Source: Sulfurospirillum sp. (GTDB lineage Bacteria; Campylobacterota; Campylobacteria; Campylobacterales; Sulfurospirillaceae). Taken from it: a stretch of DNA of 64,000 nucleotides. Location: the NCBI GenBank assembly GCA_045047115.1, contig JASFYR010000010.1, positions 85,457 to 149,456 of the forward strand, written 5' to 3'. The position numbers and the translations under genes are program-made. A model generated the notes under the pieces. It was given only the letters and a program-made list of their open reading frames with translations, did not search any database and was not told the DNA's origin. Shown piece after piece: positions 10,572 through 45,955 of this stretch (positions are counted from its first letter, which is position 1; each line of letters starts with the position of its first letter).

Positions 10572-10585
10572 TTGATAAGCATCAA
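10572..10585 (+). promoter_or_regulatory. Fnr/Dnr/Nss-type box upstream of nosZ
   Basis: TTGAT-AAGC-ATCAA, 22 nt before TAAAAT (10608). Confidence 0.85.
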
Positions 10586-10649: not shown

Positions 10650-13253
10650 ATGAAGGATGTGTTTGGTAAAGCGTCAGCTTTATTAGCTACAACTGCACTA
10701 CTTGCTACATTTGCTAGCGGTGCAACTGAGTTAGAAAAGGTGATGAAGGAGAGACATTTATCTCAACAAGATCTCTTGGCAGCTGCCAAGACTTATCTAC
10801 CAAGTGGCGGTAGAGATAAATACTTGGTTTTCAGCTCAACGGGTCAAGCTGGACAAATAATGGTATATGGTGTACCATCTATGAAGATACTAAAGTACAT
10901 AGGTGTATTTACGCCGGAACCTTGGCAGGGCTGGGGATATGATGATGACACCAAGAAGATTCTTGCTGAGGGAAACATAAGAGGCAAGAAGATAACTTGG
11001 GGTGATACTCACCACCCGGGACTTTCAGAAACAAATGGTAAATATGACGGAAGATGGTTGGTTATCAACGACAAAGCAAATCCTCGTATTGCTGTTATAG
11101 ATTTGAAAGACTTTGTTACAAAACAGATAGTTGTAAACCCTGTTTTCAAAAGTGATCACGGTGGGGCTTTCTTTACTCCAAACAGTGAGTATATCCTGGA
11201 AGCTTGCCAATATGCAGCTCCACTGGATAACAACTGGCACCCTATGAGTGACTACGCTGAGACTTATCGCGGTGGTGTTACTATTTGGAAATTTAACCAC
11301 AAAACCGGAAAGATCAATGTAAAAAAATCTTTTACACTTGAACTTCCTCCATATATGCAAGATTTGTCTGATGCCGGTAAAGAGGCAAGTTATGGTTGGG
11401 GTTTTACAAACAGTTTCAATTCAGAGATGTACACAGGTGGTATAGAAAAAGGTCTTCCTCCATTTGAGGCAGGATGTTCTAGAAATGATACTGACTTTTT
11501 GCAGGTATATAACTGGAAAAAACTTGCAAAACTTGCAAAAGATCCAAAAAATGTAAAAGTTATAAACGGTCATAGAGTTATTCCTATATCTGTAGCTGTT
11601 AAAAACAATGCACTGTTTTTAGTTCCTGAGCCAAAATCACCACACGGTGTTGATGTTACTCCCGATGGTAAATATGTAGTAGTTTGCGGTAAACTAGATA
11701 CTCATGCCAGCGTATATGACTTTGCAAAAATGATGAAACTTTTTAAAAATAAAGAGTTTGCAGGCAAAGATCCTTTTGGTATTCCAATTCTTGATATGAA
11801 AAAAGCTTTACACTGTCAAGCAGAGTTGGGTCTTGGACCATTGCATAATCAAATCGGTAAACACTGGAAAAAAACTGGTGAGATTTATACTTCACTATAT
11901 GTTGACAGCCAGGTTGTCAGATGGAGTTACCTAACTTGTAAAGTAAGTGACAGAATGAATGTTAACTACAACATCGGTCACCTTTGCGGTATGGAAGGTA
12001 AAACTGAAGATCCTCAGGGTGATTATATCATCGCTCTAAACAAACTATCTATCGATAGATTTGACAGAATCGGACCTTTGCATCCACAAAACCACCAGTT
12101 GATTGATATCCGTGGCAAAAAAATGCAAATGCTTTATGACTTACCTATAGGACTGGGTGAACCTCACCAGGCAGTTGCTATAAGAGCTAGTAAAATTCAT
12201 CCTTATGTAAGATATAAGATGGGATACAATCCTTTTACAGACAAGCCGCATATCGGTAAAACTCTAGCCGGTCAAGAGAAAATTGTCAGAAAAGGCAAGC
12301 ATGTATATGTTTATGGTACTATGGTAAGATCTCACATCAACCCAGAACATGTAAATGTAAATCTAGGCGATACTGTAACTTTCTATCTTACAAACCTAGA
12401 GAGAGCAGAAGATGAGACTCACGGTTTTACAGTTGACCAATACAATGTACACGCTTCACTAGAGCCTGGTAAAACTGTAGCACTATCATTCAAAGCTGAT
12501 AGAGAAGGAATTTTTCCTTACTACTGTACAGAATTTTGTTCAGCTCTTCACCTTGAAATGATGGGATACCTACTAGTTAAAGATCCGAATAAAAAGTATG
12601 CGAAAGTCGCCAGATTGAAAATGGCTAAAATGAGTCCAAAACAACTAAAAGCAGAGTATGACAAAACAGTAGCTGTAAACAAAGCAACTGACGCTGTTAT
12701 CCAAAGTGTTGTTAAGTTTTTGAAAGAGAATCACTACGAAAAATATCCTGTAGTTAAAAATCTTGTTGTTGATGCGCTTGACCAATACGGTAAAATTGCT
12801 AAACAAAAGAAACTTTCAAATAAAGAAGTAAAAGCCGGAAATCTAAATAAAGCAATTTTGTTTGAAAATATGATTTGGCAATATATGGTAAAAACTGCCG
12901 ATGTTGGAATTAGAGCAAGAGATTTACTTGTCAAAAAAATTGCAACTCCTATGAGTGCAGCTGCCCAAAGAGGACACGCTGCTTATCTAGAGGGCGGCTG
13001 TAACGGTTGTCATGTTATCGGAAAAGTTAGTTCTGGTCCAGACCTGGTTGGTGTTTTGGGAAGACATGAAAATGGTGCAAAATGGGTCAAAGAGTGGATA
13101 TTAAATCCTGAAAAAATGTACAAAAATCCGTATATTAAATCTATGACCAATTATTTCAACCTAAGAATGCCTAACCAAGGTATGAAGCCTCACGAAGTTG
13201 ATGATATCATCGAATATCTAAAATGGATAGATAAAAACGCTAACTTGTTTTAA
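10650..13253 (+). CDS. nosZ: Clade II cytochrome c nitrous-oxide reductase (cNosZ)
   Basis: Sec-type signal, DTHH, SPHG, EPHQ, CuA motif CTEFCSALHLEM, C-terminal CNGCH domain. Confidence 0.98.
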   Translation: MKDVFGKASALLATTALLATFASGATELEKVMKERHLSQQDLLAAAKTYLPSGGRDKYLVFSSTGQAGQIMVYGVPSMKILKYIGVFTPEPWQGWGYDDDTKKILAEGNIRGKKITWGDTHHPGLSETNGKYDGRWLVINDKANPRIAVIDLKDFVTKQIVVNPVFKSDHGGAFFTPNSEYILEACQYAAPLDNNWHPMSDYAETYRGGVTIWKFNHKTGKINVKKSFTLELPPYMQDLSDAGKEASYGWGFTNSFNSEMYTGGIEKGLPPFEAGCSRNDTDFLQVYNWKKLAKLAKDPKNVKVINGHRVIPISVAVKNNALFLVPEPKSPHGVDVTPDGKYVVVCGKLDTHASVYDFAKMMKLFKNKEFAGKDPFGIPILDMKKALHCQAELGLGPLHNQIGKHWKKTGEIYTSLYVDSQVVRWSYLTCKVSDRMNVNYNIGHLCGMEGKTEDPQGDYIIALNKLSIDRFDRIGPLHPQNHQLIDIRGKKMQMLYDLPIGLGEPHQAVAIRASKIHPYVRYKMGYNPFTDKPHIGKTLAGQEKIVRKGKHVYVYGTMVRSHINPEHVNVNLGDTVTFYLTNLERAEDETHGFTVDQYNVHASLEPGKTVALSFKADREGIFPYYCTEFCSALHLEMMGYLLVKDPNKKYAKVARLKMAKMSPKQLKAEYDKTVAVNKATDAVIQSVVKFLKENHYEKYPVVKNLVVDALDQYGKIAKQKKLSNKEVKAGNLNKAILFENMIWQYMVKTADVGIRARDLLVKKIATPMSAAAQRGHAAYLEGGCNGCHVIGKVSSGPDLVGVLGRHENGAKWVKEWILNPEKMYKNPYIKSMTNYFNLRMPNQGMKPHEVDDIIEYLKWIDKNANLF

Positions 13254-25096: not shown

Positions 25097-25741
25097 TTGA
25101 AAGATTTACTAAAACAAATTCCTATATTTGAAAGTTTTAGCGATGATGATCTTTCTTATCTTGAAAATATTTCAACAGTAAAAATATTTGAAAAAAACAG
25201 GGTTGTCTTCTTTAAGGGAGATGACTCAAAATATCTTCACATTCTTTTAGAAGGACATATAAAGATATATAAAAACAATATAAAAGGGAATGAGGTTGTA
25301 TTGAAAATTCTCGACACACCCTCTTTGGTCGCCGAATTGGCAAATTTGGAACATATGCCATACCCATCTAGCTGTTCAACACTGATTGATTCAAAAATTT
25401 TATTGGTTGATTTTGAAAAATTTGAAAATCACTTCTTAAATAATACAAAATTTTTATTTATGTTTGTAAAGTCTTTGACAAAAACCATATTGATGCTGGA
25501 AAAAACAATCTCCTTGAATCTTACCCTGGACTCAACATCAAAAGTGGCAAAACACATATATGAAACGTTTCCTAACTCTTGTCATATGAATCACAAAATT
25601 ACAGCTTCTACACTAAATATGACTCCGGAAACTTACTCTAGAATTATAAGAAAGTTCAAAGATGAAAACTTGATAAAAGAAGAAAACGGTGAGTTCACTA
25701 TTTTAAACGGGAGCAAGCTAAGAGAATATTTTGACATATAA
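25097..25741 (+). CDS. Crp/Fnr family regulator (NssR/Dnr-like)
   Basis: HTH MTPETYSRII with the canonical ExxSR recognition helix; no FNR Cys cluster. Confidence 0.9.
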   Translation: MKDLLKQIPIFESFSDDDLSYLENISTVKIFEKNRVVFFKGDDSKYLHILLEGHIKIYKNNIKGNEVVLKILDTPSLVAELANLEHMPYPSSCSTLIDSKILLVDFEKFENHFLNNTKFLFMFVKSLTKTILMLEKTISLNLTLDSTSKVAKHIYETFPNSCHMNHKITASTLNMTPETYSRIIRKFKDENLIKEENGEFTILNGSKLREYFDI

Positions 25742-25783: not shown

Positions 25784-26398
25784 CTACATTCCCAAAGAAC
25801 CTATCAGAGTAGCTTTTGGGCTCACACCTTTGTCTTGTATAAACAAGAAGTCATTTCCGGGTGCTGCCGCATGGCAAGATATACAACCCACCGGCATACC
25901 TTTTGCAACCTTGCCTGCCAACTTCATACCCTTTGGATTTTTCATAATTATTCCATCCGGAGTATATTTAACCCAAAACCAATCTTTATCATCAGGGTCG
26001 TAACCCGGTCTTTTAGCCATAACTGTTATAGCTTTTAGGTATTTGGATCTATTTAAGGATACACTATCAATGCTAACCCCTTTTCCTCCGTAGTTTCTCT
26101 TTAAAACTATTAGATTGCCATCAATTTTACCCTCTAAAACTTCTCTGACTTTTCCATGTGGAGGACTACCGGTATAGAGCTTCGAAGCTTTAGAGTTAAA
26201 ACCCATCATTTCAAGTTTATTCCAAAGATTTTGTGCATACGACACATCATCCATGCTGCCAAATGGGGGCACCATTTTACCCATCGATTTTTTGTTGGTA
26301 TTTTTGTCGCTATTTGTGCCATAATCACTGCTCATGGCACAACCCGAAATTAGAAGACCGGTGGCACTTAGTGCAACGATAAAATATTTTGTATTCAA
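25784..26398 (-). CDS. Cytochrome P460/c'-beta family lipoprotein
   Basis: Lipobox ISGC, ITVMAKRPGY...DWFWVKY...GCISCH...DFLF; GAGGAG SD supports TTG start at 26398. Confidence 0.8.
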   Translation of the reverse strand: MNTKYFIVALSATGLLISGCAMSSDYGTNSDKNTNKKSMGKMVPPFGSMDDVSYAQNLWNKLEMMGFNSKASKLYTGSPPHGKVREVLEGKIDGNLIVLKRNYGGKGVSIDSVSLNRSKYLKAITVMAKRPGYDPDDKDWFWVKYTPDGIIMKNPKGMKLAGKVAKGMPVGCISCHAAAPGNDFLFIQDKGVSPKATLIGSLGM

Positions 26399-26489
26399 GA
26401 TAAACTCCTCATTTTGTTTTGATAAAAGCATCTTATCTATGCTGCGTGTAATAATTGTTTAGAGTTTATTGATATAATTATTTTATTGA

Positions 26490-26503
26490 TTGACCCATAT
26501 CAA
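26490..26503 (+). promoter_or_regulatory. Nss/Dnr box
   Basis: TTGAC-CCAT-ATCAA, 22 nt before TATAAT (26526). Confidence 0.8.
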
Positions 26504-26557: not shown

Positions 26558-26917
26558 ATGTCTGATTTAAAAATCTCAAAACCAGATGATGCAAAAGAGA
26601 TAACAGTCGAAGGTCAAACAGTACCTTTTTTTGAGTATAAGATAGGTGATACTACATATATAGAATTTGACACATCAAGATGTGGTCCACCTGAGCCTAT
26701 GGTAAATGCTATGCTTGCAGTTGGACTTATAAAGGACAAAAACACAAAGGTTATCATGATAAATCACAAAAGTCCTGCCGGATTATTACCAAAAATAAAT
26801 CAAAATTACAATATCCAAGAGGCTACGACAGAAGATGGGAAAGCAAAATTGATTTTTTCATATAAAGAAGGCATGAGCGAAAAAGCTGACCTAAGTGATA
26901 AAAGTTGTGACGGATAA
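26558..26917 (+). CDS. DUF2249/TusA-fold-like protein
   Basis: FDTSRCGPPEPMV...MINHKSP resembles the DxRxLxPPEP...H.P pattern. Confidence 0.6.
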   Translation: MSDLKISKPDDAKEITVEGQTVPFFEYKIGDTTYIEFDTSRCGPPEPMVNAMLAVGLIKDKNTKVIMINHKSPAGLLPKINQNYNIQEATTEDGKAKLIFSYKEGMSEKADLSDKSCDG

Positions 26918-26920
26918 AAA

Positions 26921-28216
26921 ATGGCAAAAAATCTAGCCACAGATATGGCGCCACCATTTATATTGGTGGCACACTATTTTATAGCAGGAGCTGTTTTTTA
27001 TGCAATTACTGCTTTTTTACTACCTTTTTATGCAAATGAAGTAAGCGGATATTTCCTCTCATCTTCTATTGCTACCCTTATGCATCTTTACTTACTCGGT
27101 TTTGTAATGATGGTAATTTTTGGTGCCATGTACCAGCTAGTCCCTGTTGTGCTAGAAATTCCAATCTTTTCAAAAGATTTTGCCTACATACAGTTTTATA
27201 TGTTTGTTGGCGGAATATTGATTTTTACATCCGGTTTAGCAGACGAAAACTTTACTCAAATTTTACCTTATGGCGCAATGCTTATGTATCTTTCTATGCT
27301 TATATTTGTAGCCAATGTATTCTTAACATACAAAAATATAATAAGATGGGATATAGTTGCAAAATTCATATTTGTATCAAATATATTTTTAACCATAGGC
27401 GTAACCATAGGCTTTATAATAGCACTAAATCTCTTATATGGCTTTTACCCTGATATATTAGGCCTTGTACAGATGCACATAGCTACGACTATATTTGGAT
27501 ATGTTATTATGACTATTATGGGAATAGGTATGATTTTGCTACCTATGTTTTCACTCTCGCACGGATTTAATCAAACAGCCATAGAAATGGCGTTTTACAC
27601 CATAATCATAGGTTTGATTCTGTTTTTATTTGGAACTTTTTTTAAATTAGATATACTGAAATTTGGTGGAATCCTGTTTTTAACAGTAGCAATCTTTTTT
27701 GCACTCTACCAAATGTATCTGATATTTTCCACTAGAATAAGAAAGCAAAATGATTTTTGGGCAAAAAATATGATGGCTTCATTTGCTACACTCATCATTT
27801 CATTTTTTATACTTTTAGCAGGGGTAATAACCAAAAATGATACATACTATCTACTTTTTGGATTTACCCTCTTCTTTGGTTTTTTTACCTTTTTTGTAGT
27901 CGGTCATATCTATAAGATACTTCCATTTTTGGTTTGGTATCAAAGATATTCTCCGTTAGTTGGAAAGATAAAAGTACCTATGTTAAACGATATGGTACAT
28001 GAAAAAGTAGCAGATACCCAGTTTTGGATTACACTTACAGGACTATTGCTGGCTATCGGCGCAATTGTCGCAAAAATTCCCTTTGTATTTCAAATAGGAA
28101 CTGTGATAATGGGCATAGGAACTCTTTTGGTGATATACAATATCTATTATACCCTTATATACGGGATAGAAGAATTAGAAAATTATAATAAAGGATTAGA
28201 AAATGGCAGTAACTGA
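26921..28216 (+). CDS. 12-TM membrane protein with heme-copper oxidase subunit I/NnrS-like repeats
   Basis: Repeated H-x4-5-G...G...LP units (HLYLLGF...GAMYQLVP; HIATTIFG...GMILLPMF; GHIYKILPF). Confidence 0.7.
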   Translation: MAKNLATDMAPPFILVAHYFIAGAVFYAITAFLLPFYANEVSGYFLSSSIATLMHLYLLGFVMMVIFGAMYQLVPVVLEIPIFSKDFAYIQFYMFVGGILIFTSGLADENFTQILPYGAMLMYLSMLIFVANVFLTYKNIIRWDIVAKFIFVSNIFLTIGVTIGFIIALNLLYGFYPDILGLVQMHIATTIFGYVIMTIMGIGMILLPMFSLSHGFNQTAIEMAFYTIIIGLILFLFGTFFKLDILKFGGILFLTVAIFFALYQMYLIFSTRIRKQNDFWAKNMMASFATLIISFFILLAGVITKNDTYYLLFGFTLFFGFFTFFVVGHIYKILPFLVWYQRYSPLVGKIKVPMLNDMVHEKVADTQFWITLTGLLLAIGAIVAKIPFVFQIGTVIMGIGTLLVIYNIYYTLIYGIEELENYNKGLENGSN

Positions 28217-28505
28217 GGAAATGGTATATGATGCTATAAAAACAGTAATAGACCCTGAGGTTGGATTTGACATCTACTCTTTGGGCTTAATTTATGGAGC
28301 AAAAGTTGAAGGAGACCATGTGCATGTAACCATGACCCTCTCAACCAGAGGTTGTCCTTTGCATGAGATGATGAAACAGTGGACAAAAGAAGCTGTGGAA
28401 AAAATCGATGGTATAAACAGTTGTGAAGTCGAGATAGTATGGGAGCCGGCGTGGAATGTCACTATGGCAAGTGATGAAGTTAAAAAAGCATTGGGAGCAT
28501 TCTGA
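28203..28505 (+). CDS. DUF59 (SufT/PaaD-like) Fe-S assembly factor
   Basis: VIDPEVG...LGLIY...TLSTRGCP...VWEPAW. Confidence 0.92.
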   Translation: MAVTEEMVYDAIKTVIDPEVGFDIYSLGLIYGAKVEGDHVHVTMTLSTRGCPLHEMMKQWTKEAVEKIDGINSCEVEIVWEPAWNVTMASDEVKKALGAF

Positions 28506-29107
28506 TGGCATTTCCAAAATTTTTCGATAAAGTTCCGGGAATTACAACATTTGACCCCTTGGCTCTGATTCTTGGAACAGTAGAAGACGGTATCATAAAA
28601 TTCAGATACACCCAAATAGTAAAATCAGCAGGACACAGTTGTCCAACAGTTGCAGGCGCATATCTTATGACACTAAAAGCTCTTGATGCTCTCTATCCCG
28701 ATACTCCAGCTGTTAGAGGAGATATAAAAGTTGAATTCAAAGAGGATATAGAGGATGGAGTTGCCGGTGTCATAGCAAATGTAATCTCAAACATAACGGG
28801 AGCTACAGATAAAAGTGGTTTTAAAGGATTGAACGGAAATTTTACAAGACACTCTTTGATGAAATTCAACTCAGATATAAGCGCAAGCGCAAGATTTACT
28901 AGAACTGATACAGGAAAAAGTGTAGATGTATTCTACAATCCCGGAATAATTCCTCCTCATCCTAAAATGAAAGAGTTAATGGGGTTAGTTATCACACAAA
29001 ATGCAACAGACGATCAAGTAAAAGAGTTTGGTAAACTTTGGCAAGACAGAGTCAAAAGAATACTAATAGATAATCTAAATAATGAAGAGATGATAAATAT
29101 AATATAA
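28505..29107 (+). CDS. FmdE-family protein
   Basis: GHSCPTVAGAYLM. Confidence 0.75.
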   Translation: MAFPKFFDKVPGITTFDPLALILGTVEDGIIKFRYTQIVKSAGHSCPTVAGAYLMTLKALDALYPDTPAVRGDIKVEFKEDIEDGVAGVIANVISNITGATDKSGFKGLNGNFTRHSLMKFNSDISASARFTRTDTGKSVDVFYNPGIIPPHPKMKELMGLVITQNATDDQVKEFGKLWQDRVKRILIDNLNNEEMINII

Positions 29108-29109
29108 AT

Positions 29110-29123
29110 TTGACTTATGTCAA
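29110..29123 (+). promoter_or_regulatory. Nss/Dnr box upstream of nirS
   Basis: TTGAC-TTAT-GTCAA, 22 nt before extended -10 TGnTACACT. Confidence 0.85.
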
Positions 29124-37562: not shown

Positions 37563-37576
37563 TTGATTTAAATCAA
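37563..37576 (+). promoter_or_regulatory. Nss/Dnr box upstream of the nor operon
   Basis: TTGAT-TTAA-ATCAA inside a 24-bp perfect palindrome; 22 nt before TATAAT (37599). Confidence 0.85.
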
Positions 37577-37657: not shown

Positions 37658-37984
37658 ATGATTGAACCGTTGTATGTTAGACCGGTTATTGCACTAAATG
37701 ATTTTTTACCTATATTTGTCTCTGCTGGTCTTATTTTACTGTTTGGTTCATTTTATGCTGGTGTCACTACGCTTGTAAAAATGCAAAAACTAAAAAAAAC
37801 ATATATGTTTTTGGCATATATGTTTTGGGTTTTTCAACTTTACTGCACCTACTTTTTAACCACAAAAATACATAGCCAACCATTTACTGTAAAAGCTATG
37901 ATTATAGCTATGATAGCCTACCTAATGGTACCGCATATCTATTATTATCTAATAAAAAAATCTGAAGAGAGATACGAAAACTAA
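37658..37984 (+). CDS. 3-TM membrane protein preceding norC
   Basis: AAGGA SD; three hydrophobic segments. Confidence 0.8.
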   Translation: MIEPLYVRPVIALNDFLPIFVSAGLILLFGSFYAGVTTLVKMQKLKKTYMFLAYMFWVFQLYCTYFLTTKIHSQPFTVKAMIIAMIAYLMVPHIYYYLIKKSEERYEN

Positions 37985-37996
37985 AAAGGAGGAAAG

Positions 37997-38698
37997 ATGT
38001 CTGGAAAAAAAGTATCCGTTTGGTCGGATAACCGTTTTTGGCAAAGATCTGCTACATGGGTAACAGGTTTTGCTGCACTTTTGCTAATATGGCTAACATT
38101 TGACACTATGGGACAAATATCCATGGGGAATCAAAATGATATAAATAAGCATATCACAAAAAGAGTTCCGTCACCTACTGTAATCAATTATAAGGTTGAA
38201 TACAACATGAATCAAAGAAGAGGTCATGAGGTACCGGTTATCGGTGGGGATGATGGAAAAGGAAACTCTTTGTTTAAAGTAAAAGAGATGTTCTTCGGCA
38301 GAGATGATTACTCTCAAAAAGAGGCTAACGCACTTTTGCATCTTGGTAAACTTGCTTCACAGGCCAAAAACTGTATGGATTGTCATACACTTCTTGGAAA
38401 TGGGGCATATTATGCACCTGACCTTACCAAAGCATGGCTAGATCCAGCCTGGGGAAAAAATGGACCTATGCAATCAATGACAGGCAAAAGTACAAAAGAA
38501 GAAGCAATGGCAGAGTTTTTACAACATCCAGGTAAATACCCAACACATGCAAGAATGATGCCAAATCTTGGAATAACACCAAAAGAAGCTATAGGACTTG
38601 TAGCATTTTTAAAACATATGTCAACGATAGACACAAATGGTTTTCCAAGAGGTTTTGGAAAGATTAAGGAAGGAGTAGTTTATGCAAGGTCAAAGTAA
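37997..38698 (+). CDS. norC: Nitric oxide reductase subunit C
   Basis: TM anchor, NCMDCHTLLGNGAYYAPDLT, RMMPN. Confidence 0.95.
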   Translation: MSGKKVSVWSDNRFWQRSATWVTGFAALLLIWLTFDTMGQISMGNQNDINKHITKRVPSPTVINYKVEYNMNQRRGHEVPVIGGDDGKGNSLFKVKEMFFGRDDYSQKEANALLHLGKLASQAKNCMDCHTLLGNGAYYAPDLTKAWLDPAWGKNGPMQSMTGKSTKEEAMAEFLQHPGKYPTHARMMPNLGITPKEAIGLVAFLKHMSTIDTNGFPRGFGKIKEGVVYARSK

Positions 38699-40106
38699 TT
38701 TCAAATACGAATCTCAAAAACTAGGAAGTTGGTATTTTACAGTTGCTGTTATACTTTTTGGTGCTCAACTTGTTTTTGGCTTAGTATCTGCTATCCAATT
38801 TATCTATCCATCATTTTTATATGATATCCTTGACTTTTCAATCACTAGAATAGTGCATATAAATGCACTTGTTGTTTGGATGTTATATGCTATAATTGGT
38901 TCAGTTTACTATCTTTTGCCCGACGAAACAGGCATAGAGACAGTTGGTATCGGCATAGGAAAACTACTGTTTTGGGTACTCACTTTAGCCGTTACTGTTG
39001 TAGTTTTAGTCTATATCTTTATACAGGTAGGACCTGCAAATCAAACAACAATTTGGCTAATCACTGAGGGTAGAGAGTATATAGAGGCTCCAAGATGGGC
39101 TGATATAGGTATAGTTGTAGTAGTTGTGGGCTTTTTGGTAAACACTTTCTTGACTTCCATTAAAGGTAGGAGAACAGGAATCATGACTGTAATCCTCTCA
39201 GACATGATAGCCCTTGCGGGTCTATATCTGGCAGGTATGTACTTTACTGACAATATCTCAATGGATCAATACTGGTGGTGGTGGGTTATACACCTTTGGG
39301 TTGAAGCTACTTGGGAAGTTATGGTTGGTGCACTTGCTGCATATGCTCTTATAAAAGTAGTTGATGCAAAACGAGAGATAGTTGAGATGTGGCTTTGGAT
39401 AGAGGTTGCCATGCTCTTTGGATCAGGAATACTGGGCTTAGGTCACCACTACTTCTGGATAGGAACACCTGAGTATTGGTGGGAAATCGGTGCTTTATTT
39501 AGTGCACTAGAGCCATTGCCACTTATTGGTATGTTTGTACATGTATTGTATGACTGGGGTAAAGAGAAAGGCAAAAAAGAGCATACGGGAGTTGATACAT
39601 CATCGAACAATACTCCGGCTCTTATATGGTTGGTTTCAAATGGATTCGGAAACTTCTTGGGTGCCGGTATCTGGGGATTTTTTCATACATTGCCTCAGGT
39701 AAATATCTATACTCACGGAACCCAGTTTACAGCAGCTCACGGACACCTTGCATTTTTCGGTGCGTATGCTACTATACTGATAGCGATGTTCTACATGGCG
39801 ATTCAGGGCAAATACGGCATCAAAAAGCTAAGAGCAACATTTGACTCAAAGATGGCAATATTTCTCATATCATTTGGCGTGATTGGGATGACAATCGCTC
39901 TGACAATCGCCGGATACGAGCAGGTTCTTATAGAAAGAGCTCAACTAGGCGCTACCTGGAATGCATTTTTCCTAGCTCAAAACCAAACATGGATGGCGCA
40001 AGCTATGGATTGGCGACTCATCATGGGTGTAGTAACAACAGTCGGATTTTTCTATCTAGTAAAAGATTTATTAACTATCAGTAAAAATCCCAACAATGTA
40101 AGATAA
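38682..40106 (+). CDS. norB: Nitric oxide reductase subunit B (cNOR)
   Basis: GREYIE, HLWVEATWE, GHHYFW, HGHLAFFG. Confidence 0.97.
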   Translation: MQGQSNFKYESQKLGSWYFTVAVILFGAQLVFGLVSAIQFIYPSFLYDILDFSITRIVHINALVVWMLYAIIGSVYYLLPDETGIETVGIGIGKLLFWVLTLAVTVVVLVYIFIQVGPANQTTIWLITEGREYIEAPRWADIGIVVVVVGFLVNTFLTSIKGRRTGIMTVILSDMIALAGLYLAGMYFTDNISMDQYWWWWVIHLWVEATWEVMVGALAAYALIKVVDAKREIVEMWLWIEVAMLFGSGILGLGHHYFWIGTPEYWWEIGALFSALEPLPLIGMFVHVLYDWGKEKGKKEHTGVDTSSNNTPALIWLVSNGFGNFLGAGIWGFFHTLPQVNIYTHGTQFTAAHGHLAFFGAYATILIAMFYMAIQGKYGIKKLRATFDSKMAIFLISFGVIGMTIALTIAGYEQVLIERAQLGATWNAFFLAQNQTWMAQAMDWRLIMGVVTTVGFFYLVKDLLTISKNPNNVR

Positions 40107-40749: not shown

Positions 40750-40763
40750 TTGATACTTGTCAA
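40750..40763 (+). promoter_or_regulatory. Nss/Dnr box
   Basis: TTGAT-ACTT-GTCAA, 22 nt before TAGAAT (40786). Confidence 0.8.
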
Positions 40764-41202: not shown

Positions 41203-42204
41203 ATGACTAAAGAGATACTTTCGATAATACAAAAAAACTTTCCTTTGACATCCAGACCCTTCAAAGAAATAGGAAAAAACCTAAATATAAGCGAAAATGA
41301 AGTATTAAAAATTCTACAAGAACAAAAAGAAGCAGGAATTATTCGTCAAACTTCTGGCATATTTGACACAAAAAGACTAGGATACAACTCTTCTCTTGTT
41401 GCCTTCAAAATCTCAAAAGAAAAGATTGATAAAGCTGTTGAGATTCTAAACTCACATCCGGGCATATCTCACAATTACGAAAGAAACCATGACTTTAATA
41501 TCTGGTTTACTATAGCAGTAGAGCCGGACAGTTCACTTGGTCTTAAAGGAACAGTTGAGCTTTTGGCAACTTTATGTAAAGCCCAAGACTTCATCATTTT
41601 GCCAACACTGAAGCTTTTTAAAATATCGGTTAAACTGAATATTACAGGTAAAGACAAACAAAAAGAGAGAGTCAAAAAAGTCAAACATAAAGAGATGAAA
41701 TTAACACCTCTTCATTATAAAATCATTAAAGCTCTACAATACGACATCAAGATTATCTCTGAGCCGTTTAAAGAGATAACAGACAAACTAGATATCAGCT
41801 ATGAACAACTTTTTGGGACTCTTAAAGAGTTAAAAGATACAGGATTCATGAGAAGGTTTGCCTCAATTTTAAACCATAGAAAAGCCGGATTCAATGCAAA
41901 TGCAATGGTAGTTTGGGATGTAGATGAGAGAGACAGTGAAAAGATTGGAGATATTGCAGCTTCATTTAGCGCTGTGAGCCACTGTTACCTGCGTCCAAAA
42001 TACCCTAATTGGCCGTATAATCTCTTTACAATGATTCATGGAAAAACAAAAGAAGAGACAAGTAAAACCATCAATGACATTTCCAAAGAAATCAACTCTA
42101 AATCGCACATACCTCTATACTCTACAAGAGAATTTAAAAAAGTCAGAATTGAATATTTTACTGATGCTTTCAAAATCTGGGAAAAACAATACATAAAAAA
42201 TTGA
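41203..42204 (+). CDS. Fused siroheme decarboxylase (NirDL/GH, AhbA-AhbB type)
   Basis: Two Lrp-like halves: SHNYER...NIWFT and SHCYLRP...YNLFTMIHG. Confidence 0.92.
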   Translation: MTKEILSIIQKNFPLTSRPFKEIGKNLNISENEVLKILQEQKEAGIIRQTSGIFDTKRLGYNSSLVAFKISKEKIDKAVEILNSHPGISHNYERNHDFNIWFTIAVEPDSSLGLKGTVELLATLCKAQDFIILPTLKLFKISVKLNITGKDKQKERVKKVKHKEMKLTPLHYKIIKALQYDIKIISEPFKEITDKLDISYEQLFGTLKELKDTGFMRRFASILNHRKAGFNANAMVVWDVDERDSEKIGDIAASFSAVSHCYLRPKYPNWPYNLFTMIHGKTKEETSKTINDISKEINSKSHIPLYSTREFKKVRIEYFTDAFKIWEKQYIKN

Positions 42205-42214
42205 CATAAGTCAA
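42201..42214 (+). promoter_or_regulatory. Nss/Dnr box upstream of the gNOR-like operon
   Basis: TTGAC-ATAA-GTCAA overlapping the upstream stop codon; 22 nt before TATAAT (42237). Confidence 0.85.
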
Positions 42215-42270
42215 CAATTTTATAAAATTCTTAAGATATAATACTTATAAATTTTATAAGGAGGACAAAT

Positions 42271-42861
42271 ATGACATTTGCGAGTTCGATAGAGTTGCTT
42301 AGGTTTCATAATGTTGCTTACACTATCTATGCATTTTTGATTATATCAATTATAGCATGGTTCGGGTACAACCTTACGAAAGCAAAGAAAGCTAATTCAT
42401 TGGTTAGAATTCCATTTTATGCATATATTGCGTTTTTGGTTATAGGCGGTGTGGGGCATCACATCTTTACATACAATACGATACCTTGGGTATCAGAGGA
42501 TATAAGTAGGGATCACATAAAAGCTGATCAAACTTTTAATTTTGAGATTAAGAATCACAAATGGATACTTCCAAAAGAGAAGATAAATATCAAATGTGGT
42601 CAAAAGGTAATGTTCAAGGTAAAAAGCGATGATTTGACATATGGTTTTGGTCTTTTTAGACAAAATGGAACAATGGCTATGCAAATGCAAGTAGATCCTG
42701 GCTCGCCAAACGAAATACTATGGACATTTAACCACAATGGAGTTTTTGATTTAACTTCAACTGAATATTCCGGTCCTGCACAATACGATGAAGAGGGAAA
42801 TGATTTGATGAAAGTAAAAAAACTAATTAGAGTAACAGGATGCACAGGAGGTCAAAAATGA
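42271..42861 (+). CDS. Heme-copper superfamily subunit II lacking CuA ligands
   Basis: Two TM helices plus cupredoxin fold; SDDLTYGF and STEYSG replace SxDVxHG and CxExCG. Confidence 0.88.
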   Translation: MTFASSIELLRFHNVAYTIYAFLIISIIAWFGYNLTKAKKANSLVRIPFYAYIAFLVIGGVGHHIFTYNTIPWVSEDISRDHIKADQTFNFEIKNHKWILPKEKINIKCGQKVMFKVKSDDLTYGFGLFRQNGTMAMQMQVDPGSPNEILWTFNHNGVFDLTSTEYSGPAQYDEEGNDLMKVKKLIRVTGCTGGQK

Positions 42862-44507
42862 GTTTTGCAAAAACTTTAATTGGTGGAACAAATTTTAATC
42901 ACCACAGTCTGAATGCTCTTCAAAAAGTAACATTAAGAGCTGTTGTTATGGCATTTCTATTTTTTGGTCTTACTGCAACTGAAGGTATGATTATGAGAAT
43001 GGTAGTTACCGGATCCGCAAATCCACTGCCTGAGATGTTTTCACATCCTGCACACTACTTTTCTATCATGACAGTACACCCTATAGTCGGTATATTTGGC
43101 TCTACTTATCAGTTGGTATTTGCTGCTTTTATGTTTTTGGTTCCTTTTCTAACAAAAAAACCATTATATAGCGTCAAATTGGCAAATGCTGTTTGGCTTC
43201 TCATTACAATCGGTACAGCTTTGGCTTGGTTGGCAGCATTCTTTTCACACTATGCTCCATTATATACACTATATTGGCCACTACCTGCCGATACAACACA
43301 GTTTAATGTCATAGGCGGTATAGTATTTATAACTGGCATAGCGCTTATCATGGTTGGTACTTTGGGATTTATTTACAATATCTATGCAACCATATTTGCT
43401 CGTGTCGGTGTTCATAAAAATAAAACTACAAAAGAGTTACTGATCTCAGGTTTTGGAATAGACGGTATGCTCAATATCTGGCACAAAATCACTGGACGAC
43501 CTCCTTATTCAAAAGAGCCTGCTCTTGCACTTCCTGTTGTTGCTATCTTTAGAGGAACAGTAGATACATTTCTAGACGCTCTTGTTATTCTTGGGGCTGG
43601 AGTATTGGTTTTAATTTATCTGATAGCTGATGCTGGCGGATTAAGCTTGGATGTAACTACGATAAATGCTCTCTTATATAAAAACTTTTTCTGGTGGGGG
43701 CTTGACTTGGTCGCCGATGGTTTGGTTCTTATTTATGTTGCCGGATCTTGGTATTTGCTTGCATCTCTAATCACAGGACAAAAATTGTTCATGGAAAATG
43801 TAGCAAGAGCTGCTCTTATGCTGGAACTTCTTGTCTCTTGGATGGTTTGGTCTCACCACCTGCTAGCCGACCAGGCACAACCAGAGATGATGAAACTAAT
43901 CTCAGGTGAGATGGTTACAGCTTTTGAGCTTCTTACTCAAGGCTTGGCACTGTTTATCACTTTGGTTACTCTATGGAAGGCAAGACCACTTAAAATGACT
44001 ATGGAGCTCAAGTATTTACTTGGCGGACTGGTTGGATTCGGCCTGGCAGTTCCTGCTGCGATTATCCAAGCGGATATGGGTATGAACAGAGTCCTACACA
44101 ATACTCAATGGATCATCTTTGCGCATGTTCATATAGCTCTTATAGTTGGACTATATATGACTCTGTACAGTGCTGTATATGTTCTATGGCCGATCGTAAC
44201 AAATGGTACCAAAATGTACTCGCACAAGCTTTCAAACATACACTTCTGGCTACACCTCATAGGTGGTATAGGAATGGGAGCATTTGCCGGTATGGCAGGG
44301 CTTGATGGTATGCTTCGTCGTCACCTATATGTTCACGGCGAATTTAACAATCTGATGATTTTGGCTGCGATTTGTGGCTCTATGGTACTTATCGCCTGGG
44401 CTTTGTTTTTGTTTAATATAATTATGTCAGTAGGTATTAAAGGACTTATTGGTATATTTTTACCTGCAAAAGACAAAACTGCAAGTTATGGAATAGAAGA
44501 AGAATAA
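42858..44507 (+). CDS. Heme-copper superfamily subunit I, gNOR-like
   Basis: MTVHP, WSHHL, AHVH, GMLRR; helix VI FWWGLDLVADG has Asp where His is canonical; AGGAGG SD before ATG 42858. Confidence 0.85.
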   Translation: MSFAKTLIGGTNFNHHSLNALQKVTLRAVVMAFLFFGLTATEGMIMRMVVTGSANPLPEMFSHPAHYFSIMTVHPIVGIFGSTYQLVFAAFMFLVPFLTKKPLYSVKLANAVWLLITIGTALAWLAAFFSHYAPLYTLYWPLPADTTQFNVIGGIVFITGIALIMVGTLGFIYNIYATIFARVGVHKNKTTKELLISGFGIDGMLNIWHKITGRPPYSKEPALALPVVAIFRGTVDTFLDALVILGAGVLVLIYLIADAGGLSLDVTTINALLYKNFFWWGLDLVADGLVLIYVAGSWYLLASLITGQKLFMENVARAALMLELLVSWMVWSHHLLADQAQPEMMKLISGEMVTAFELLTQGLALFITLVTLWKARPLKMTMELKYLLGGLVGFGLAVPAAIIQADMGMNRVLHNTQWIIFAHVHIALIVGLYMTLYSAVYVLWPIVTNGTKMYSHKLSNIHFWLHLIGGIGMGAFAGMAGLDGMLRRHLYVHGEFNNLMILAAICGSMVLIAWALFLFNIIMSVGIKGLIGIFLPAKDKTASYGIEEE

Positions 44508-44549: not shown

Positions 44550-44819
44550 ATTGCTCCACTGGCTAGATACACCAATTTTTGATGTTTTATTTTTGTTCAT
44601 AGACGAGACAGATTTTTGCTGGCTTAGCAAGAGCTAAGTCAAAGAAATCTAACGAAGTATATGGGCAAAACTAAAACACCCAAAGGGAAAATAGATATAG
44701 GGCAATCTTTGAATATAAAAATTATCAAATTAGCAAATGCCGGTCCTTCAAATTTTTTTATTTAAATCTCACCCTATCTCTGTTTTTCAAAAGTTGGTGT
44801 ATCTAGCCAGTGGAGCAAT
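44550..44819. mobile_element. MITE-like element with 33-bp terminal inverted repeats
   Basis: ATTGCTCCACTGGCTAGATACACCAATTTTTGA (44550-44582) vs 44787-44819, one mismatch; GAGCAATAAT direct repeat at 44542-44551 and 44813-44822; no transposase. Confidence 0.75.
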
Positions 44820-44820
44820 A

Positions 44821-45426
44821 ATGACAAATTTACAAAGAGTTGCTAAAGAGATAAAAGATGTAGGTCTATATGATTTAATCTTACAAGATGTTCAAAAGCT
44901 AGCAGGCAAAAGAAAATTGAGCATGGAAGAGATTTTAGACATTATGCAAAAAAATCCTCAAATACTGGAGGAGTATAAGCAGGTAAATATTGAGTACAAC
45001 CTAAGCAATATTCACATAGACAAAGTAGAAAAATCAAACATAAACGAAGAATATCATCAAAAGATAGAAACAATCAACCAAAACTTAAAAAAAATCAAAG
45101 AAATAGAAAAATATACACTCGATTTTGAACACAGCTCAACTCTGGTGATTATATTTTCAATAGAGTTTTTTGTACTCTTTTCGGTTCAGTATTTTATAGT
45201 TTTACTTGATTTAAAAGAGTGGCAACTGTGGATTTACGGACTCTTTGCAAGCTCAATACTGTGGGCTTGGCTATATGCAAAAAAACAGAAAAAGCTATAT
45301 ATTAAGAACTCTAAAAAATTTAACGAATTGTACAAAGAAACAAAATCTCTTTTAGATGATTTAGAAGATAAAAATGTCCTAAAAAGAAGCGAGATATACA
45401 AAAATCTGAGCGAAGAACATGTCTAA
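44821..45426 (+). CDS. Hypothetical membrane protein
   Basis: Start reassigned to ATG 44821 (the upstream part of the track ORF lies inside the MITE); two TM helices. Confidence 0.75.
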   Translation: MTNLQRVAKEIKDVGLYDLILQDVQKLAGKRKLSMEEILDIMQKNPQILEEYKQVNIEYNLSNIHIDKVEKSNINEEYHQKIETINQNLKKIKEIEKYTLDFEHSSTLVIIFSIEFFVLFSVQYFIVLLDLKEWQLWIYGLFASSILWAWLYAKKQKKLYIKNSKKFNELYKETKSLLDDLEDKNVLKRSEIYKNLSEEHV

Positions 45427-45955
45427 AGAGATAGTTTTAAGCTACCGTTGGACTAAAGAGATTTATATGCAGGCAGGAGAGTTTGCATACGACTTTAAGA
45501 TGAATCACACACCCAAAAAATATATGGGCTGGTTTTTCATAGCTTTATTACAATTTGGCGTTGTTGGAGCTTTACTAAAAGGAACTTTGGCAATACTGCT
45601 CTTTTCAACAATTTTACTGATTTACTGGTACTATATAAAAAAGAGGATAGAGAAATCCTTACTTCTAAAAAATTTTGACAGGGAAGAGGATGCAAATAAA
45701 ATACTTGACATTATTATAAACAAAGAGCACATCAGTATCAATAATAAAAAAATTCTATGGAGCGATATAACACAAATCATATCCGGTGAAAGAGGTTATC
45801 TTCTTGACCACATAGACGGTTTTCTTTTTTTTCCGGCAAATGCCTTTAAAAAAGAAGAAGACAAAACAGAGTTTATAGAGTTTGCCAAGAAAAACGGTAT
45901 CCACATCCAAAGAATTCAAAAATCTACAAATCAACCTTTGATAAAAACCACGTAA
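45419..45955 (+). CDS. YcxB-like membrane protein
   Basis: Two TM helices then W.DI...FFPANAF C-terminal domain. Confidence 0.65.
   Translation: MSKEIVLSYRWTKEIYMQAGEFAYDFKMNHTPKKYMGWFFIALLQFGVVGALLKGTLAILLFSTILLIYWYYIKKRIEKSLLLKNFDREEDANKILDIIINKEHISINNKKILWSDITQIISGERGYLLDHIDGFLFFPANAFKKEEDKTEFIEFAKKNGIHIQRIQKSTNQPLIKTT

Follow-up and report, generated by a model that had tools for sequence, protein, structure and literature searches.

A gNOR-family gene pair with a two-aspartate metal site in a Sulfurospirillum denitrification island, and its probable role in nitric oxide reduction

The window analysed here is a 64,000-nucleotide stretch of a Sulfurospirillum sp. genome (phylum Campylobacterota; 2.14 Mb, 100% complete). 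It carries a denitrification island with nosZ (10650), nirS (29228), a cNOR operon (37658-40106) and heme d1 genes, followed by a gene pair for an aberrant heme-copper oxidase (HCO): subunit II (42271..42861, + strand) and subunit I (42858..44507, + strand). Judged by its sequence, the pair belongs to the published gNOR (norGH) family, and nothing that defines the family differs. We propose that this heme enzyme is probably a menaquinol-fed, non-pumping nitric oxide (NO) reductase (2 NO to N2O) or NO detoxifier. No other HCO family has been described as having lost an active-site His, and sulfur oxidisers of vents and sediments commonly encode gNOR. The literature searched (subscription journals were outside its coverage) gave no report on gNOR regulation, purification or accessory genes; the regulatory statistics, the swap of Nss and Rrf2 operators and the companion gene ORF3 presented below, none of which was found there, appear to be useful additions.

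Subunit I has 549 aa when begun at the ATG that matches homologues (42858; the longest open reading frame (ORF) begins at 42840). The original prediction described a helix VI that had lost both the His ligand and the HPxVY motif, and a metal site of the form Asp-His-His. The altered helix is present, reading FWWGLDLVADGLVLIY, and the WSHH (H333/H334) and HVH (H423/H425) motifs and the helix-II His are all kept, with H74, H423 and H425 as heme ligands. The description of the metal site was correct but incomplete: an Asp does stand at the CuB-His position (D283, codon 43704-43706), and a second invariant Asp occupies the Tyr position (D287, codon 43716-43718), giving a predicted site of D283, D287, H333 and H334. 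The two Asp residues align with H284 and Y288 of cytochrome bo3 (E. coli CyoB; hhalign probability 99.9%) and with the H-x3-E of NorB, and D283 also aligns with H233 of ba3. An AlphaFold model of subunit I (pLDDT 91.7) has the HCO fold and places D283 and D287 one turn apart in the helix of residues 271-306. Of 81 loci, 80 share the helix-VI motif letter for letter and the last has F for L with both Asp retained; the motif is therefore no sequencing slip. In all 165 full-length homologues (99 from Campylobacterota and 66 distant metagenomic ones, after a length filter that excluded shorter or cut ORFs) D283, D287, E357, H74, H333, H334, H423 and H425 are invariant. E357, a helix-VIII Glu of the NOR type, follows the His pair by 24 residues and stands in register with the Glu of the 'ALEP' motif in the two NorB proteins; qNOR has H486, E490, H537/H538 and E559 at a spacing like that of the gNOR site (PMC10256718).

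Subunit II (196 aa) has two membrane helices and a cupredoxin domain, for which ba3 CuA domains are the profile matches. It had been predicted to be CuA-less through a change of His to Tyr and of both Cys to Ser; comparison with the CuA domain of T. thermophilus ba3 agrees, these residues being Y124, S163 and S167, and adds the loss of the second His, leaving all four strong CuA ligands missing. Its Y-G-F and STEYSGP-like motifs also occur in the distant clade. Near the second helix (window 42335-42510), H64, D77 and R80 are invariant in 38 of 38 aligned sequences and may help to form a quinol or metal site. No heme a synthase (CtaA) match and no heme o synthase (CyoE) above cut-off were found in the genome, and its single ubiA_other gene presumably serves menaquinone synthesis; from these we infer an enzyme with heme b only and menaquinol as donor. 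The expectation of a quinol donor is likewise consistent with subunit I, where two residues of the bo3 quinol site (residues as in PMC13022660) have counterparts: E42 is an acidic match to D75 (164 of 165 homologues) and H66 corresponds to H98 (162 of 165).

The predicted gNOR-like identity holds up. Murali 2024 (PMC11214002) defines gNOR, mostly from sulfidic settings, by an Asp that replaces an active-site His, the absence of the Tyr, a subunit II without CuA and candidate quinol residues. The target shares each of these, the CuA-less subunit II being a cupredoxin and the candidate quinol residues being judged by the bo3 alignment, not by that paper's own residue list, and it shares the absence of the B-family K-channel. 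D287, E357, the regulator sites and ORF3/ORF4 described below go beyond the paper's main text; its Fig. 1B, SI Appendix and Dataset S2 may show the residues. In a quick maximum-likelihood tree of 51 rows, in which deep branches are not settled, all 34 D-x3-D rows form one clade (SH-aLRT 99), separate from A-family, C-family, cNOR and HPxVY rows. The proposed phylogeny check thus gave no clustering with ba3-type oxidases as far as this tree, which has no solved ba3 sequence among its rows, can show. Nor does the tree include the six gNOR reference accessions, so the clade is tied to gNOR indirectly, via P0096, a protein 87% identical to the target and, by its source, from Sulfurovum sp. NBC37-1. 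We take GCF_000010345.1 to be this strain. Dataset S6 of Murali (PMC11214002) scores GCF_000010345.1 as C=1, cNOR=1 and gNOR=1. Two further aberrant HCO subunit I proteins are weakly sister to the gNOR clade and may be further undescribed variants: P0214 (WWGLHSYVNQ, FHH; heme site YVH) and P0258 (WVALRFYLQG, WQH), the latter without the helix-VI His and without one His of the pair.

The pair fits neither cNOR/qNOR nor the B-family O2 reductases. With cNOR (NorBC) and qNOR it has in common a carboxylate four residues past the helix-VI ligand, a helix-VIII Glu and no Tyr; unlike them it has D-x3-D instead of H-x3-E, a cupredoxin subunit II instead of a cytochrome c subunit or fused N-terminal domain, quinol residues at the bo3 position and a clade separate from these C-family-related enzymes. 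The B-family (T. thermophilus ba3; bNOR/eNOR/sNOR) supplies the best profile matches for both subunits, with ba3 at the top. The features of a B-family O2 reductase are lacking, however: the three-His CuB site, the His-Tyr cross-link (H233 and Y237 of ba3 are both Asp here), the K-channel and CuA, besides the two heme synthases missing from the genome. E. coli cytochrome bo3 shares the CuA-less subunit II and the D75/H98 counterparts; unlike it, gNOR has no TM0, subunits III/IV, Tyr, CuB triad, R71 or Q101.

These affinities suggest an alternative, namely a quinol-fed O2 reductase or scavenger that shields denitrification enzymes at low oxygen and works without the Tyr-His cross-link. Descent from O2 reductases speaks for it, as do the ba3 and aa3 oxidases that are the best solved-structure matches of subunit I (in a profile search; a single-sequence PDB search gave none), bo3 as the top match in the fold search with the model, and the parallel with bo3 in subunit II. 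Set against this, all 165 homologues have Asp at the position of the cross-link Tyr, and PMC11214002 found no migrated Tyr in gNOR. The K-channel Lys/Thr sites are Ala and Gln (bo3 T359 and K362 become Q361 and A364 in the CyoB alignment), and one of the five subunit-I K-channel residues of Murali Dataset S1 is kept (Y248, as Y299). We regard an O2 enzyme as improbable, also in view of the regulatory evidence below.

In the NO reductase that we favour, quinol would bind at E42/H66 beside the low-spin heme b. From heme b, electrons would move on to heme b3 and a non-heme metal (probably Fe), whose ligands would be H333, H334, D283 and perhaps D287. Protons would arrive by way of E357, a role ascribed to the matching Glu of cNOR and qNOR; subunit II would have a structural role, and no proton pumping is predicted during the conversion of 2 NO to N2O. 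Such an enzyme would provide a second NO sink, one that needs no cytochrome c; in this genome it accompanies two cNORs, and some relatives have it as their sole NO reductase (NOR). D283, D287, E357, E42 and H66 are the residues to mutate.

The pair is preceded by an Nss/DNR-type Crp/Fnr box of the form TTGAC-N4-GTCAA (TTGACATAAGTCAA, 42201..42214, + strand), which overlaps the nirDL stop codon and has its centre about 41.5 nt upstream of the inferred start of transcription; a -10 hexamer, TATAAT (42237..42242, + strand), follows 22 nt past the box. Perfect TTGAY-N4-RTCAA sites number 24 in the genome. Eleven are not deep within ORFs, and six of these eleven lie in the island, 55-105 nt upstream of their genes and each with a -10-like hexamer 22 nt further on (6 of 6). 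The other five stand before nosZ (10572..10585, +), the 26558 operon (26490..26503, +), nirS (29110..29123, +) and the cNOR operon (37563..37576, +), and between the divergent 40685 and 40827 genes (40750..40763), the latter of which runs into nirDL. Among 90 Campylobacterota gNOR loci with at least 150 nt of upstream sequence, which are kin and not independent, 72 have a perfect box upstream of subunit II. Shuffled sequences gave a mean of 0.24 (maximum 3 over 200 shuffles); of the 297 other genes used as a control, 16 have the box, most of them in nir, nor or nap clusters. In 66 of the 72 the best -10 match falls 21-23 nt downstream of the box, ties being broken towards 22. Since upstream neighbours differ widely among loci, the box travels with the gNOR operon. 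The same variation led us to reject both cotranscription of gNOR with nirDL and a fixed place for it in the nir/nor cluster; nirDL is directly upstream in the closest relatives only.

It had also been pointed out that the gNOR and nirS boxes are exact reverse complements of each other. This is so, yet it is weak evidence: the consensus is palindromic, which leaves six positions of the box free to vary, the rough chance of an exact match to any of the other five boxes is about 0.02 under assumed base frequencies, and the spacers vary in relatives. The real regulatory evidence, as we read these sequences, is the conservation and position of the box. A search of the window allowing one mismatch was uninformative, finding 20 sites against 16.7 expected by chance. 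Most relatives have TTGAT in place of TTGAC. Positions 42201-42228 also contain a near-consensus sigma-70 arrangement (-35 TTGACA, 16 nt, TAAAAT; 11/12), and a second, overlapping promoter is possible there.

TTGA-N6-TCAA is the consensus of Nss, a DNR-type regulator responsive to nitrate, NO or N2O, and in Wolinella succinogenes and Nitrosophilus labii denitrification operons have the Nss box about 48 nt upstream of their transcription start (PMC11539149). The gNOR box shares this sequence and its class II position, and a regulator of the Nss/DNR type probably turns on gNOR together with nir, nor and nos. The NO-type promoter originally proposed therefore stands as a link to nir and nor, and has to be widened from NO alone to a nitrogen-oxide regulon. 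A candidate reader of the box is the Crp/Fnr protein encoded at 25097..25741 (+ strand), whose recognition helix has the ExxSR pattern and which contains just two Cys; the genome encodes four Crp/Fnr proteins, and two have this helix, one of them in the window. In other phyla, FNR-like boxes are typical of low-oxygen genes, which would favour an O2-reducing role. Two observations oppose it: the FNR-type N-terminal Cys cluster, in its generally known pattern, occurs in none of the four Crp/Fnr proteins, and the cbb3 promoter has no such box, none lying within one mismatch before ccoN (nor before the second norC, on contig C24).

A second regulator leads to a similar association. Three genomes of genus g2 (L081-L083; L081:8989-9600) have no Nss box at gNOR and no nirS or cNOR match; instead a divergent gene for a four-Cys Rrf2 protein adjoins gNOR, and a TACTAC-N6-GTAGTA operator lies directly before subunit II. 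The second cNOR of the Sulfurospirillum genome, of the classical type (contig C24:25363-31016; norC and norB, then by inspection norD-, norQ- and norE-like genes), has a divergent Rrf2 gene whose product is 45-47% identical to the g2 proteins. This operon has no Nss box and carries a TACTAC-N6-GTAG(T/A)A operator twice (one and two mismatches; GTAGAA-like). Two unrelated regulator sites are therefore each common to gNOR and a true cNOR operon, the Nss box here and the Rrf2 operator in three relatives, which gives independent support for a nitrogen-oxide role. The HCO subunit I genes above the Pfam cut-off in the genome are four: cbb3, the window cNOR, the second cNOR and gNOR. The genome would thus hold three predicted NO reductases, two cNORs and gNOR, under two regulators.

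gNOR was found in 35 of 401 genomes sampled evenly from the phylum and in none of the two largest families, f2 and f3. The original description of the enzyme as little characterised is accurate in that it is unassayed, but the family is published and, at this frequency, common. By single-protein queries, nirS is matched in 23 of the 35, cNOR/qNOR in 28 and nosZ in 26, and 6 match neither cNOR nor nirS. The predicted setting alongside cNOR is thus right for this genome, with its two cNORs, and does not extend to a general tie to cNOR or nirS. Of five genomes examined by means of the Pfam family, four, the closed G191 among them, have cbb3 and gNOR as their sole HCOs above cut-off; genomes such as G191 offer a clean genetic background. 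G172, with nirS and nosZ and no NOR but gNOR, was set aside as an example, since it also lacks ccoN and its assembly looks incomplete.

Several points weigh against an NO reductase role. Within the protein, the profile match of E357 to NorB is weak (probability 2.9%), so that this correspondence rests on register, and the bo3 quinol residues R71 and Q101 are lost, being L38 and S69. In regulation, the same box marks nosZ and, with one mismatch, napA, so NO is not singled out; 18 of the 90 loci have no box, including two of the three closest relatives. The text consulted of PMC11539149 lists nap, nor/nir, nosZ and nosB as Nss units and no gNOR, and the N. labii proteome table, searched for 'oxidase subunit', gave two rows (a 476-aa HCO subunit and GlcD), neither of them gNOR. 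In distribution, 12 of the 35 gNOR genomes have no nirS match; gNOR is dispensable, being missing from 12 of 35 nirS genomes and 38 of 66 cNOR/qNOR genomes, and is redundant here beside two cNORs. In print, conversion of NO to N2O by gNOR is a proposal supported by a bioinorganic mimic (PMC11214002), and among four new clades PMC13592168 (2026) names eNOR alone as confirmed; PMC8906906 and PMC6094997 use the names gNOR/norGH and leave the role undecided. Because gNOR is neither required for nor limited to NirS denitrification, NO removal fits better than an obligatory respiratory step.

Some of these points would suit a different nitrogen oxide (N2O or nitrite) as substrate, or NO splitting, at a carboxylate-rich iron site unlike that of assayed NORs. 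The two-His/two-Asp site is found in no characterised HCO, a cNOR alongside in 28 of 35 genomes would make plain NO reduction redundant, nosZ is under the same box, and many loci adjoin genes for an MFS transporter, NIR_SIR or a molybdopterin reductase (22, 16 and 17 of 101), neighbours that may point to nitrate assimilation. Still, we think such a reaction unlikely: nosZ and nirS are already present in 26 and 23 of the 35 gNOR genomes, the Rrf2 operator is common to a cNOR operon specifically, and the gNOR carboxylates sit at cNOR/qNOR carboxylate positions. Hemerythrin-like genes, at 11 and 5 of 80 distant loci, we count in favour of an NO reductase. Least credible is a non-catalytic membrane protein that binds or senses NO, or a decaying oxidase. 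The joint loss of the CuB His, the Tyr, CuA and the proton channel can be read as decay, and gNOR is dispensable in many denitrifiers; but clades that share about 44% identity have the same substitutions without exception, neither heme site has been lost, nor have the quinol-site residues, and no stop interrupts the motif region at the loci examined.

The usual transcription unit has four genes, subunits II and I being followed by ORF3 and ORF4, which are likely lineage-specific accessory proteins. ORF3 (44821..45426, + strand) encodes a 201-aa membrane protein modelled as a helical hairpin (pLDDT 86), with about 1,470 unnamed homologues and no Pfam family, no Atlas family and no Foldseek/PDB fold match at E<=0.001. 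It occurs only beside gNOR: it follows subunit I in 84 of the 88 loci whose sequence extends far enough to show it, with a median gap of 54 nt, and is found in 30 of 34 gNOR genomes vs 0 of 46 gNOR-negative genomes chosen from 366 as denitrifiers or same-family relatives. ORF4 (45419..45955, + strand; overlapping ORF3) encodes a 178-aa YcxB-like membrane protein and is present at 65 of 98 loci and, by a single query, in 13 of 34 gNOR genomes vs 0 of the 46. At 80 distant loci examined, many of them short, ORF3 was not seen, and three of the four Campylobacterota loci without it are in the tree, in one sub-branch; it is therefore a lineage-specific addition, not needed by all gNORs, and was probably gained once. 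ORF3 is a candidate accessory factor or third subunit of gNOR, and a companion gene to include when the enzyme is expressed.

A broader reading, which we hold only tentatively, joins these points: Campylobacterota gNOR might be a three- or four-protein system in place of the published two-subunit NorGH, with ORF3, as a member of a new protein family, serving as third subunit or dedicated assembly factor, and with a two-His/two-Asp non-heme Fe site and helix-VIII Glu in which the cNOR carboxylate set has been rebuilt by convergence, and it may reduce NO in sulfide or carry out another nitrogen-oxide reaction. If true, it would account for a possible failure of a two-gene construct and would indicate which genes to express.

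Between subunit I and ORF3 lies an insertion resembling a miniature inverted-repeat transposable element (44551..44818, 268 bp). It is non-coding, has 36-nt inverted arms and a TAA duplication, and is missing from the two closest relatives aligned. Its insertion lies 3 nt upstream of the start of ORF3, and a GGAG ribosome-binding motif is supplied by the right end of the element. Copies in the same genome are at C24:24250-24521 (89%) and C11:6528-6807 (82%), with remnants on C12 and C14.

At distant loci (L101:3740-4303, L144:3428-3889 and similar) a hemerythrin-like (PF01814) gene often directly follows subunit I, in the place held by ORF3 in Campylobacterota. Elsewhere in the window, nosZ (10650-13253) encodes an 867-aa protein with a cytochrome c domain at its C-terminus; nosZ homologues are found in 149 of the 401 phylum genomes, with 94 of 158 in family f3. 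The box-controlled operon at 26558-29107 comprises four poorly annotated genes (encoding a 119-aa protein, a 431-aa membrane protein, FeS_assembly_P and an FmdE-like protein), the first two of which have homologues near gNOR at 7-8 other loci; a cytochrome P460-like gene (25784-26431) is divergent from it.

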